Below are positions 33,758-38,509 of a DNA stretch of 64,000 bases, piece after piece. The stretch comes from Aplysia californica (lineage: Eukaryota): contig NW_004797290.1 in the NCBI RefSeq assembly GCF_000002075.1, forward strand, positions 660,348 to 724,347. The letters run 5' to 3'. The notes below the pieces were generated by a model. It saw only the letters and a program-made list of their open reading frames with translations, was not told the DNA's origin and ran no database searches. Numbering within the stretch: position 1 is the stretch's first letter; the number at the start of each line of letters is the position of its first letter. A program made the position numbers and the translations under genes.

Positions 33758-34069
33758 TGCAGCCCCAGACACAGGTATGACCATGATGGAATGTTACCAT
33801 AATATAATTAGTACTATATAATATTACATGTATTAAATATAGATCTAGGTTTGCATTCCCAAGTCATATCTTTCCTAACTCCAATGAATGATTATGAGCC
33901 TATCTAGTTATGTATTTTGGTGATGATGGCGGCGCAACATCTGACCTGGCTAGATTCAACAATTTGGCCTATTACATGTTGTACTTGTACACGTAGTTTT
34001 TTAACCAGATCCAAACAAACATCCATGCATATTTAGCATAGGTGCCTAGATTGCAGCTTTCTACACCTA

Positions 34070-34662
34070 GATTCTAGATCTAATGATACTAATTAATAAT
34101 ATAATGTCACACTGACAAAGTTAGAATTTCAACAGGCATTAGTGATACATACATGTATCTAGATTTTTATTTTATTCGAGATGTAGATCAAGAATCTAGA
34201 TCTAGATCTAGATGGACTGAGTTGTCACTAGATCTAGAATTAGATCTAGATCTAGAGTCTAGATCATCCATGATTCTATTCTATGCATAAAGTTTGGCCG
34301 TATAAAACTTGGAACTAGATCTAGATCTAGATTCTAGATTCTAGATCTATAGGCCTAGATCTAGAATCTAGTATTAAGCCCTAGATTTTACCCTTAACAA
34401 TTTGGGAGACTCAACTGGCAGCCCACTCCACCCCTGACCTTGCTAGACTCAGAGATCTAATCTAGATTCTAGATCTAGACATCTAGATTTTAGACCTAGA
34501 TATAGAATCTATATAAGTCTAGATCTAGAATCTAGATTTAGATTAGATGTAGATTCTAGATCTAATTCTATTTATTCAAGACTCAAGACACTCGACGTGT
34601 CAGGAAAGCTCTCGGCCTAGAAGTCTAGATAATCTAGATCTAGAATCTACATATCTAGATCT
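34070..34662. repeat. TCTAGA/AGATCT palindromic low-complexity field
   Basis: About 25 TCTAGA hexamers counted by eye in ~600 bp, often as (TCTAGA)2-3. Confidence 0.9.
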
Positions 34663-34779
34663 AAAAACCAAGATACTATCGCAGTTATACCTTCAGAATT
34701 GAGGATGTCACTCACGAGGGCTTTGGGGCCAAGAAGCAGTTGTAGGCCCTACACTATTTTTACTACAATTTGTTTACAA

Positions 34780-35984
34780 AATGACACATGACTTGCCGCT
34801 TGTCACAACTGGCCCTTTTCTCATGCGCGCGCATGTCATAGGCAGGCGGAACATCTTGAACTTGGCGCCTCGCAAACTCAATGCTAATTATGTTAGGCCT
34901 AGTCTCCACAGATCGCCAACGCGAATCTCGTAATCCATGGCGGTAAAACTGACAAGTAAAACGTTTACCTGGCGTAACTTCCTCCTCTGTTCCAGTTATT
35001 TCATAGGCCTAAGCCTAGGGCTTAATAGGCATAGACAAAGAGATTATAAATAGAACCAGAGACACTAAAATATACTCTCTGATAGAACTAAAGGTCTTAG
35101 CTATGACGTCATGCGTGTCAAACTTGAGGGGCGGGCCGCCATTCTGGAGAGGAATAAAAGGCCAGTCGGTGCACAGCAACACTTTTCAATCACGGATTAA
35201 TGATACTCCTCCTCCTCCTTCTCCTTCTCCTCCTCCTTCTTCTTCTTCTTCTTCTTCTTCTTCTTCTTCTTCTTCTTCTTCTTCTTCTTTTTCTTCTTCT
35301 GGTGTGAATGAAGTTTTACTCTTAGCAATCATGTCATCGATGTAAAGCACCCAAAGCCTATAGGCCTACTTATATGGGACGGAGCGCTGCATTTTATTTG
35401 AAATGATCTAGTCAAGGTTGTACCAGTATATAACTTTTGGGGTACTGTCCATGTCATCTCCCTTTTGCCACTAGATCAATTAATGTTCAGACTTCGAACT
35501 GATACCAGAATGAAAATATTGTATTCTGTAAGGATAGCACATTACTTTAAAAACACACGCACATGCTCACACAGCACACACAAAAATGCAAACAATAGCT
35601 AGCCTACATACTATATAGTGGGCCTGTAATTGGACACGTGGGGGGAGAAAAGGAAGCATAAGTTCTGTTTCCAAATAGTCTATGAAGTATTAATTTAGAA
35701 ATGAGTGGGTGCCAAAAAAAAAGAAAGACTATCTCAGTCTGATTGACTTTGACATATAGGGTCATAGTCATAGATATATCTCATCTCGAGCCGAAGCAAA
35801 ATTCCCTGTGCTCGAGCGAGCGGCGAGCGCTGATCGAGCGGTTCGCGGGCAGGTACGTGAACGCATTTTCCGTAGCCTAGATCTTGCTCTAACCGGAAGC
35901 TCTCTCAATTACTATTAGGCAATTTGGTGTGGCACAGTAATGGCGGCCTAGGATTTTCTTGCATCTATTCTATAGACTTCTCAA
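34780..35984. promoter_or_regulatory. Probable bidirectional promoter (orphan gene / CLASRP) including CLASRP non-coding exon 1
   Basis: CpG-rich patch with NRF1-like palindrome CATGCGCGCGCATG (34822-34835), CRE TGACGTCA (35104-35111), GC box + YY1-like GCCGCCATT (35128-35143), ETS ACCGGAAG (35892-35899) and YY1-like AATGGCGGC (35939-35947). Plus-strand donor CAA|GTATGT at 35984/35985; minus-strand donor-like GAAG|GTATAA near 34690. Confidence 0.6.
35206..35300. repeat. (CCT)n/(TTC)n microsatellite
   Basis: Direct reading. Confidence 0.95.
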
Positions 35985-36181
35985 GTATGTGTTGTAGGCT
36001 ACGGCCCTCTTGCCTCTTGGTTTTTCAGTAAGAATGTTAAGTGGCATTTTACGACTTCTAGTAGATCTAGTACTGCATGTAGAATCTAGATGTAGATTAT
36101 TGTCTGGAAAGTTGAATATGTTTAAATTGCAACTGGGACTTTTGTGCAGATCTAATCTTTACTTTACTTTATCAATAGGAA

Positions 36182-36590
36182 GTGGCTATTAGAAAAACGA
36201 TCTAGATTCTACCTCTCACCCCGGGTGAGACTTGCGACCGTAGGCTATTCTCACCCGGTTTGAAACAAGACCTGTTTTTTCTAATTTCGGAATACTTTCT
36301 ATCGATGTGGATGATCAATTTGATAAAAGTGTGTACATGTGCATGATGGTGGTGGGTGTGTGGTGGGTGTTACTGTTACTGTGTTACAGTACAGTTGTAA
36401 TGGAACGTTTGTTCACGGCACAGAATTCTACAATTTTTCTGTTATCACAGTGTAGAATTCTGTGGTTTAGGGTGAACGCAAAATTTGTTGGCCTAGATCT
36501 AGGTTATAACGGTGAACGCGCACCGGGTGAGAATAGCCAAAAGACTCGCCTGCACTATTCTCACCCCGGGTGAGAATAGAGGTGGCCTTG
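36182..36590. mobile_element. Rearranged MITE fragments with TCTCACCC(C)GGGTGAGA palindromes
   Basis: 36182-36284 is a direct copy of ~38570-38716; 36285-36328 and 36400-36589 are inverted copies of ~39340-39385 and ~38717-38910. Confidence 0.7.
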
Positions 36591-36766
36591 CCTTGCCTTA
36601 TCAGTATCAGCGGCTTGCCTAAACGTGCGACTCTTGAGACGTCAGTGCCAGTGCAAAAACATTTTTATTACCAATTTGACTCCCTTTTCTGTCAGTCACA
36701 GATTGACATTTAGTCCTCATATTCCTAGAGTATCAGAACAAGGAGATGTAGATCTAGATCTAGATC

Positions 36767-37913
36767 TAGAGTAATCGTACCGGGTCGGGCAGCACGTTTT
36801 TTTCTAGCTCTCGGGCACTGGAGTACAAAAAGATCGTTTAAAACTTTGTTTTTAAATCTAAAATCTAGATCTAGATCTAGATTCTAGATATCTAGGTCTA
36901 GATATCTAGCCCCAAAAGAGTGGCACACAAACCTAAAGCAACCTCCCTTACTTTCGTTGAAACAACAGTTACAGCGATATTTTGCTAAAAATAGTCCTTA
37001 AGACAGCCTTTTCTTCATCAACTGAGCAAAACAGCGTGAAGCTGTTTCCCCGGAAGAGTTAACATTGGTTGTGGATGGAGGAGCCTGTGGCCTAGATTCT
37101 ACGTTTTGGTAAACTCTGAAAGCTCGAGAGTTATTTGCATATGAGGCCCCATCAAGGATGAAAGAAAATTTGCGGTTCAGCCTCGCCGTTTTTGCCCAAA
37201 GGGGGGGTGCCGTATTGTAACATAAAGTCCGTAGTTTCTCATCCTTCGGGCACATTTTATAAGATAATATAGTTCTAGTGCCAATGGTTATATAATAAAA
37301 AATCAAGAAATTTGTGCATAATTTAAATAATAGTAGAGTCAGATACAGGCATATTATATATTAGCCCAGTCAGACACCAGGGTAGTAGAGTCACAGTGTG
37401 TAATACAGTCGGCTATCAGTGTAGCAGAGTCAGATACCAGTGTAGTTGAGTGAGCCAGATGCCAGGGTGGTAGAGTCAGATACCACGTAGTAGAGTGGGT
37501 CAGATACATACTCATTAAAATAGCTATAAATGGTGAAAACCACTTTAGACAAACTATCATGGTGTCCAAGTGTTGATAACAAGCATTAAAAATCATGTTA
37601 TTAAGCTTGCAAAGAAACAAATGTGATAATAATTGAAAATGACCGAATGTCAAAATACTGCCCGAATCCATGAGAAAACAAAAAAAATGTGACCGAACAT
37701 GTAAATAAATCGGGCGTCACTTTTGCACCCAGTAAGGGCCTCAAATATATGAGAACAAGCTGAAACAGGTCATTCCTGGGGTCATCCAATCACAGGGCTT
37801 CCTGTAGCTGGTTTCGGTTTGTCTCTAGGGCAAGGCAGATAGGAGATATAAAGCTTTAAAGTCGACGTGCCTGTTTTCGTCCTTATTTTGACCGAACCGG
37901 TAATTTTACTCTA
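36767..37913. mobile_element. Possible hAT-like non-autonomous element
   Basis: Imperfect TIRs TAGAGTAATCGTACCGGGTCGG / TAGAGTAAAATTACCGGTTCGG; internal GTAGAGTCAGATACC tandem repeats at ~37330-37510; TSD obscured by TCTAGA runs. Confidence 0.5.
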
Positions 37914-37932
37914 GATCTAGGGTTTTGGAGAT

Positions 37933-38297
37933 GGTAGTGTCAATTGCCACCGAGTGACGCGGTGGCAATTGACAAAAATGGACTTTTTGTCAATTGCCAC
38001 CGAGTGAAGCGGTGTCAAGTCTGAAAATAACACTATATTTAGCATTACATGTGTGTCTAATGGGTCAATTTGTTTTCAACTAATTTCATTGGACGAGCAT
38101 CTAGTCTAGAGCTATGGTACCAACTTCGCGTGTTTTCAATGAGACGTAGGCCTAGATTTAGGCTAGCCTTAGCCTACACTTTGGTGCAGAACCAACACAG
38201 GCAATTCTAGAAGTAGAAGGTCACAAATGCACACAAACTCAAGCAGAAATTCACGTTATATCGGGGAACATAAATCGGGGGACGGGGGTCAGGAAAA

Positions 38298-38352
<55 letters not shown>

Positions 38353-38509
38353 GGACAGAGAGGCGAACGCACAACACCGAGCACTCGAGCACAATAAGCT
38401 AGATCTACCCACCACAATGCAAAAGAGCTCCAATTTACTCGGTGGCAATTGACAAAAAGTCAATTTTTGTCAATTGTCACCGCGTCACTCGGTGGCAATT
38501 GACACTACC
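37933..38509. mobile_element. Mutator-like (MULE/foldback) MITE
   Basis: Perfect 9-bp TSD TTTGGAGAT (37924-37932, 38510-38518); ~73-bp TIRs starting GGTAGTGTCAATTGCCACCGAGTG with 2 mismatches; internal (CA)n at 38299-38348. Confidence 0.9.

Follow-up and report, generated by a model that had tools for sequence, protein, structure and literature searches.

Short words that gather beside promoters have been described in fish and in Phytophthora, and the nearest described phenomenon to the one treated here is the set of linker 6-mers of hypomethylated promoter domains in medaka, of which the top 20 include TAGGCC, TCTAGT, TAGCTA, GCTAGC and CTAGTA, with no known factor, and whose origin and function the authors leave open in the text cited (PMC5607494). 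Here we analyze a 64,000-nucleotide stretch of the Aplysia californica genome (NCBI RefSeq assembly GCF_000002075.1, contig NW_004797290.1, positions 660,348 to 724,347 of the forward strand; hereafter the window, in whose own coordinates all positions are given), in which irregular fields of TCTAGA lie between two divergent genes. These are a 328-codon gene on the minus strand (the left gene) and a plus-strand gene with a DRY_EERY domain, which we take to be CLASRP; the third gene of the window, RCOR (plus strand), carries the same words near its start. A preliminary description had attributed the fields to palindromes growing from CTAG seeds, through break repair or transposon excision, or else to binding sites of some factor. 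That observation is real, but it was partly overstated, and we re-frame it as one of fixed words bounded by TA. All counts come from this one window and its two promoter regions, with start sites that are predicted.

Like the words of teleosts (medaka and zebrafish), those in the window are short CTAG or TAG..CTA sequences on the promoter side, and TAGGCC is common to both (PMC5607494). The fish differ in that GCTAAC and GCTAGC lead and AGATCT is disfavoured, and in that their words have a spacing of ~200 bp and mapped accessibility, whereas the window is known from sequence alone; the parts of the fish study drawn on here contain neither tandem TAGATC fields nor the idea of a footprint (PMC5607494).

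A second likeness is to the footprints of Tc1/mariner transposons, for which TA duplication and end joining have been described (PMC2874221). A TA, two bases from each end and a closing TA describe the three leading words of the window, TAGATCTA, TAGGCCTA and TACATGTA, and for Tc1 itself taCATGta is given as a footprint, though a rare one (PMC3520976). Also reminiscent of Tc1/mariner are elements of the window with terminal inverted repeats that can be read with CA...TG or GA...TC ends and TA flanks, the GA...TC one in one of seven registers that fit. In the passages cited, however, such footprints are rare single events and not accumulating promoter fields (PMC3520976, PMC2874221), and the window differs further in that one-end products are not enriched and the donors with GA...TC and GG...CC ends are only putative.

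In Phytophthora, too, TACATGTA is a palindrome framed by TA and common in front of genes, for which the authors considered and then rejected a footprint origin (PMC3520976). There the word has a binding protein and is conserved (PMC3520976, PMC11134190), whereas in the window it is not promoter-specific, with 5 of 13 copies in 29001-33300; because the Phytophthora word has a binding protein, the possibility that words of this kind are selected sites stays alive. The hAT transposons with NTCTAGAN targets (PMC3014272) offer another comparison, as the densest field of the window is a run of such targets with linkers that fit junction loss, but the isolated words lack duplicated flanks and a TAG-ended element of the window lacks an 8-bp duplication. 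An (AGATCT)n microsatellite would share the period of 6, the tandem copies and the slippage of variants, but the runs seen here are short and separated by unique spacers, many words stand alone, and insertions fall at the centre of the unit instead of spreading over all its positions. Among the papers listed by our literature searches, none described fields of TAGATC beside promoters of gastropods or explained such words as footprints; figure-only motifs, subscription papers and preprint supplements were outside the scope of these searches.

TA-framed words and their distribution

The true unit of the fields is the TA-framed word TAGATCTA, and its seed is TA, not the CTAG proposed earlier. When all 256 8-mer palindromes were compared over the whole window, TAGATCTA (37 observed, 1.05 expected), TAGGCCTA (17 and 0.49) and TACATGTA (13 and 2.05) were enriched; other leading palindromes were ATCTAGAT, with 20 copies that overlap TAGATCTA, and the tandem-repeat word TCATATGA, with 13. 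TA..TA palindromes as a class number 90 against 17.5 expected, and the remaining 240 palindromes 302 against 241. With the region of the divergent fields removed, each of the three words still has 12 copies, and TA-GGC-TA plus its complement occurs 21 times where 4.7 are expected. One-mismatch forms are also in excess (TAGGCCTA 25 against 9.4, TACATGTA 43 against 25.6, TAGATCTA 21 against 15.0 with p 0.08), as expected for the birth and decay of words, and are distributed across all word positions. Three mixed chains share a single TA.

The edges and flanks of the words were compared for isolated copies, with the 23 TAGATCTA in tandem fields set aside, which leaves 14. The palindrome continues past TA in 5/14 TAGATCTA, 3/17 TAGGCCTA and 4/13 TACATGTA, compared with 84/291 other palindromes, and the flank continues the unit in 1/14, 1/17 and 2/13, respectively, and never on both sides; none of the 17 TAGGCCTA is in tandem. 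The cores are thus fixed words that were not copied from adjacent sequence, a result that speaks against both generic fold-back and a seed of duplicated 8-bp targets. If breaks were repaired through generic hairpins or fold-back, with palindromes growing from CTAG seeds, variation at the palindrome centre and the few longer palindromes of 12-14 bp would be explained. However, the palindromes stop at the TA frame, arms end at TA at the chance rate, the flanks do not supply the core of isolated words, strong enrichment is limited to 3 of the 16 TA-framed cores of mixed bases (with TACTAGTA at a count of 0) and none of the unique spacers is inverted and duplicated, so that we regard this process as largely refuted already and highly improbable.

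The dense field (34070-34662), in which about 25 TCTAGA had been reported, contains 26, compared with a mean of 2.46 and a maximum of 7 in 300 dinucleotide shuffles, and 14 TAGATCTA, compared with a mean of 0.38 and a maximum of 3. The wider stretch 33840-38410 contains 39 TCTAGA (shuffle mean 2.1, maximum 7) and 5 TAGGCCTA (shuffle mean 0.06). GATC is the most common form among the units of the dense field (15), followed by GAATC/GATTC (9) and rarer variants. Its earlier characterization as irregular rather than a clean satellite is borne out by Tandem Repeats Finder, which returned head-to-tail units in arrays of 4.5-18 copies with matches of 67-96% and indels of up to 18%, and by its spacers of at least 14 nt, 0/10 of which match elsewhere in the window. 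Dense fields had been placed on both sides of the promoter, and this holds for the left; to the right of the core only 36750-36910 forms a cluster, with 8 TCTAGA, while 35880-36210 has 2 and 37900-37925 and 38100-38170 have 1 each. The layout is therefore one dense field and one small cluster rather than two dense fields. The core itself (34663-35870), described as largely spared, is free of TCTAGA but contains three TAGGCCTA (34894, 35004 and 35361).

Transposon-like repeats occupy 2921 of the 3900 bp of the CLASRP intron, about three quarters, and about half of the intron's words lie inside them (TCTAGA 7/13, TAGATCTA 5/10). Two copies of one repeat, 36208-36590 and 38571-39389, share one TAGATCTA (36494 and 38807), and the unit is therefore older than the duplication of the repeat. 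Both observations could suit fields made of fragments of a single transposon or satellite consensus that lie near promoters by chance. Yet the word-bearing repeats are three unrelated ones, the share of words inside repeats (5/10) is below the share of sequence, no terminal repeats were found around the dense field, its spacers lack matches and the words at RCOR stand in unrelated flanks, which makes a single consensus very improbable.

RCOR provides a replicate outside the original finding, with 9 TAGATCTA in 9400-13400 compared with 0.07 in shuffles. Among the TAGATCTA clusters outside 33000-39500, 7/9 are no more than 2.5 kb away from 11450 (binomial p 1e-6), for a predicted start site and a 2.5-kb limit picked after the data had been seen; with TAGGCCTA included, the figure is 10/21 clusters. 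Distal bodies of RCOR and CLASRP hold 0/22 TAGATCTA clusters, 1/17 TAGGCCTA, 2/20 TAGGCTA/TAGCCTA and 1/13 TACATGTA, in a class that excluded 29001-33300, where 5 TACATGTA fall. Within this window, TAGATCTA is a promising marker of start sites, whereas TAGGCCTA and TACATGTA are not start-site specific and mark non-gene-body DNA more loosely. The promoter association claimed before thus finds a second locus and an empty distal-body class in its favour, at the scale of two promoter regions and not of the genome. Word density correlates with the CpG observed/expected ratio (rho 0.39, p 0.026; with promoters left out, rho 0.20, p 0.34), and cluster spacing is irregular, roughly 60-260 bp, with no clear 200-bp period among the few clusters.

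Unlike TAGATCTA and TAGGCCTA, TACATGTA has 8/13 of its copies at 28600-33830, in and downstream of the left gene. At 9387, TCTAGA belongs to the native coding sequence of a long interspersed element (LINE) remnant and is not a scar.

Transposon excision and other proposed origins of the words

Insertions within the fields fall at a single place. With looser anchors, one-base insertions are at the GA^TC centre in 14/14 cases (A 5, T 7, G 2), and with strict anchors in the promoter-proximal zones in 11/11; two-base insertions are central in 4/4 (TA 2, CA 1, AG 1), and the whole window has two off-centre insertions, both outside the fields. Slippage simulated with random indels gave a centre fraction of 0.16-0.24 and was all-centre in 18 of 3665 qualifying runs. 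Substitutions left the TA intact at 22/22 scored positions and changed the other four bases at 9/91, both small numbers. The centre-only pattern resembles a repair junction, and selection on an intact TCTAGA would equally give it.

A variant GATG-TA (34180, 34544, 36087 and 36745) accounts, as C to G, for 4/6 changes at the unit's C and is a hybrid of GA and TG half-words.

We interpret the fields tentatively, with a probability of roughly 0.4, as scars left by the excision of cut-and-paste DNA transposons that target TA, with re-insertion and slippage having lengthened them. The starting point is the set of TA-framed words, foreign to their flanks and clustered beside two promoter regions. 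If Tc1/mariner biology applies, insertion would duplicate TA, and excision followed by end joining would keep two terminal bases per end and turn TA into TA-GA-TC-TA, while GG...CC ends would yield TAGGCCTA and CA...TG ends TACATGTA; the enriched words do have this two-end form of TA, the terminal bases of both ends and TA, within unrelated flanks. Every footprint would supply a new TA in a TCTAGA context and so leave the site open to repeat insertion. The variants at the GA^TC centre would mark the repair junction, and slippage would multiply units in tandem, as in the adjacent TAGATTC copies at 34328 and 34335. Transposases would thus have written the words, with whole elements purged or departing, 6-bp scars tolerated and the fields mostly neutral, and repeated landing and leaving would be likely in promoter-proximal chromatin that is presumably open in the germline. 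The preference of Sleeping Beauty for nucleosome linkers speaks for such a reading (PMC4786924). Excision footprints were one branch of the preliminary description and are its best-supported one, though unproven.

One insertion may have been caught in place. The element at 36769-37911, readable with GA...TC ends and TA flanks, sits inside a chain of TAGATCTA, and in this register excision that keeps two bases of either end would yield TAGATCTA again; by the same rule the element at 57841-58627 would leave TACATGTA. Past the shared TCTAGA its two ends match at 16/21 bases, more than any other of 703 end pairs (mean 5.8, next 14), so the element reported before at 36767-37913 is real; its mirror-image flanks amount to 7-9 bases only, and they arise because the element lies in a self-complementary repeat. 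As the site is self-complementary, seven registers fit, with duplications of TA or of 4, 6, 8 or 10 bp, and the alternative register TAG...CTA (36767-37913) has a 4-bp GATC duplication and no 8-bp duplication. Academ elements have TAG...CTA ends with a 3-4-bp duplication. Academ-type ends with the GATC duplication are compatible with this register, and the two longest frames had no transposase match.

Several points weigh against an origin by transposon excision. The TA register is one among seven, the usual Tc1 ends are CAG and not GAG, the two longest frames of the element have no Pfam match to a transposase, the window holds no second copy of it, and no TA-GG...CC-TA element was found in the window. 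Of the central insertions, 12/14 are A or T (GAATC/GATTC) and mismatch the element's third base, GAGTC occurring twice. Tandem copies at 38964-39385 differ by a 4-nt gain of ATCT, not by 6 nt, and a 5-nt gain at a TA near 9525 in the LINE remnant has shifted the frame; neither is a clean 6-nt footprint. The number of events required per site is high, the centre-only insertions are equally predicted by selection, and the evidence is drawn from a single window. One-end footprints show no excess (TA-CA/TG-TA 55 observed and 53 expected, TA-GA/TC-TA 35 and 38, TA-GG/CC-TA 12 and 22), against a background that is high for such short TA-xy-TA words, even though the two-end Tc1 product is described as rare (PMC3520976). 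Finally, Sleeping Beauty prefers nucleosome linkers, but it is described as near-random genome-wide, without start-site enrichment (PMC4786924).

The main rival, which we consider somewhat unlikely, is that the words are selected cis-elements, either sites of some factor or words that hold the linkers between nucleosomes open beside unmethylated promoters, with slippage multiplying them and selection preserving the TCTAGA core. Fixed 8-mers, sharp edges, clustering at promoters and a TCTAGA never split by insertions would all follow from this. There is precedent in the medaka linker 6-mers that lack a known factor (TAGGCC, TCTAGT, TAGCTA, GCTAGC), in the lower rate of single-nucleotide polymorphisms reported for medaka linkers (PMC5607494) and in PsMyb37, which binds TACATGTA in Phytophthora promoters (PMC11134190). 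However, three different cores that share a TA frame would call for three separate factors or a single unusual one, the two promoters have very unequal copy numbers, substitutions affect 9/91 scored non-TA positions of the core and one-mismatch forms occur at all positions. The weight of AGATCT is also negative in medaka (PMC5607494), and the few clusters of the window lack the clear 200-bp spacing of linkers.

A process free of transposases is distinctly unlikely in our judgement. Here, a self-complementary hexamer microsatellite in unmethylated, accessible DNA would grow by slippage and hairpin-assisted repair, with an insertion bias anchored at TA. The dense field folds strongly (-42.9 kcal/mol, compared with -14.4 kcal/mol for base-shuffled sequence), variants occur in tandem copies, and the 4-nt ATCT gain between tandem copies suits a local process. 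Plain slippage nonetheless fails to give centre-only insertions, and it leaves the isolated TAGGCCTA (0/17 tandem) and the 14 isolated TAGATCTA unmade.

Scars of hAT-type elements could account for the linkers of the field: an 8-bp NTCTAGAN target would be duplicated, and excision would leave two copies minus 0-2 junction bases. Duplicated ATCTAGAT minus 0, 1 or 2 bases reproduces ATAT, ATT/AAT and AT, the dominant linkers, and lizard hATs with NTCTAGAN duplications and ends starting with TAG have been described (PMC3014272). As the seed of the words such scars are improbable, given that direct-repeat flanks on both sides are found in 0/14, 0/17 and 0/13 isolated words (0/44), that 6-bp duplications centred on TA (7, 1 and 5 for offsets of 6, 7 and 8) are not above four control cores, and that the TAG-ended register of the element shows a 4-bp GATC duplication in place of an 8-bp one. 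Elements of this type with NTCTAGAN targets may still add to established fields, and so contribute to the dense field without having seeded it.

Extended to other animals, lineage-specific TA-framed promoter words could be a fossil record of cut-and-paste transposition, a generalization that we regard as rather doubtful and that would span TAGATCTA and TAGGCCTA here, TAGCTA and TAGGCC in fish and TACATGTA elsewhere. If so, each excision would write a new target, and the resulting self-feeding hot spots would map germline-open linkers and guide the search for start sites and germline-open chromatin in gastropods from sequence alone. Transposons would remodel promoters without leaving copies, and their scars would furnish raw material later adopted as binding sites. 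If the words are footprints, a new one should appear as a gain of 6 bp at a TA, with a core identical to the ends of elements active in that genome; with predictions this exact, the origin of the fish promoter words is testable with existing haplotype data. Longer indels in medaka reportedly peak at linkers downstream of start sites, as an insertion process would lead one to expect. Should the words instead be selected, they would point to a new gastropod promoter factor.

Genes, predicted promoters and neighbouring repeats

Table 1. Positions of genes, predicted regions, word clusters and elements in the window
Feature	Position	Strand	Basis or content
Word cluster upstream of RCOR	9595..10410		Word counts: TAGATCTA x4, TAGGCCTA x2, related words
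RCOR coding exon 1	start 11515, donor 11611	+	Start placed by eye against related proteins
Word cluster in early RCOR introns	12160..13170		Word counts: TAGATCTA x5, related words
Left gene, 328-codon reading frame (P0001)	32304..33287	-	Bulinus and Physella relatives begin at the same start
Predicted first intron (5' untranslated region), left gene	33310..34715	-	Splice words; donor CTC/GTGAGT at 34715
Dense field	34068..34662		Sequence: chains of TA-delimited units in sub-clusters, unique spacers between
Predicted shared promoter and 5' exons	34716..35852		Promoter and splice words
Predicted first intron, CLASRP	35853..39762	+	Best-looking donor CAG/GTACGT at 35853
Short mixed chain of TA-delimited units	36055..36100		Sequence, unique
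Rearranged copy of the repeat at 38571-39389	36208..36590		One TAGATCTA shared by both copies
(TAGATC)3 chain, left flank and target site of the next element	36749..36768		Sequence
Non-autonomous element, ~23-bp imperfect terminal inverted repeats	36769..37911		TA-GAG...CTC-TA, one of seven registers
Second unit cluster, within left end of the element	36855..36910		Sequence
Right flank of the element	37912..37921		Sequence: one TAGATCTA
Fold-back element, 76-bp inverted arms (96%), perfect 9-bp direct repeat	37933..38508		Holds the words of 38100-38170 and 38400
TA-CAG...CTG-TA element, just past CLASRP	57841..58627		Two-end footprint would be TACATGTA

One RCOR exon shares 90% identity with proteins from Biomphalaria and Candidula, 85% with Elysia and 75-80% with caenogastropods, in keeping with a euthyneuran source, and RCOR has the Pfam REST_helical and Myb domains. 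A divergent partner upstream of RCOR was sought in 81 minus-strand frames, which gave only retrotransposon or MADF remnants and weak low-complexity matches. For the left gene no Pfam family matched, named matches come from pulmonate snails only, and an atlas search gave a top score of 0.81, to be read as leads only; the protein has a conserved acidic block, DESMA-ADSDSS...PGSPSDH-VPDL. The right-hand gene matches Pfam DRY_EERY and has its coding start at 39819.

A bidirectional promoter with fields in both first introns had been described. The coding exons of the left gene and CLASRP support their divergence, while their 5' exons, start sites and first introns are predictions from splice and promoter words. 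The left gene has an alternative donor, CAG/GTAAAC, at 34968 (minus strand), and its intron contains an assembly gap of 146 N (33612-33757); weaker candidate donors for CLASRP occur from 34943 onward. Within the predicted promoter we take the words at 34822 to be NRF1-like, those at 34936 and 35137 YY1-like, that at 35104 a cAMP response element and that at 35129 a GC box. A (CTC)n(CTT)28 run lies at 35206-35300 in the predicted promoter or 5' exon region. The promoter core and the CLASRP intron have a CpG observed/expected ratio of 0.72-0.73. In distal gene bodies the ratio is 0.40-0.42, and the left intron, with its dense field, has 0.42; gene-body methylation is given as the gastropod norm (PMC11050768).

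An Rfam scan of 33000-39800 returned 0 matches. The translation of the field was compared with spurious proteins elsewhere, where 0/176 candidates scored, and a second protein library gave one record, P0041, uninformative on species range. A bacterial promoter scan of the window was inapplicable, with matches at chance level.

The fold-back element at 37933-38508, presumably Mutator-like, is inserted some 20 bp away from where the element at 36769-37911 ends on the right and has internally palindromic arms, promoter-like words and a (CA)25 run; one frame had no significant Pfam match. The repeats at 36208-36590 and 38571-39389 are rich in CTCACCCCGGGTGAG palindromes, one copy having an internal inversion and a deletion, and the longer one (38571-39389) ends with two tandem units of a 212-bp pair, in which ETS- and YY1-like words occur. 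Inside the element at 57841-58627, a short frame at 58382, which had no Pfam match and which we take to be pogo-like, has two TAGGCCTA and a TAGGCTA upstream of it. A small element at 59479-59722 has inverted arms of 35 bp and GG...CC ends, and it is flanked on either side by AATT and not by TA.

LINE reverse-transcriptase remnants lie at 8660-9560 (minus) and 16891-17400 (plus), and a Harbinger-like remnant at 4200-5330 carries DDE_Tnp_4 (plus) and MADF (minus). A dispersed repeat of ~180 bp, probably a short interspersed element or the tail of a LINE, occurs at 1932-2118, 7851-8043, 49646-49820 and 63358-63535.

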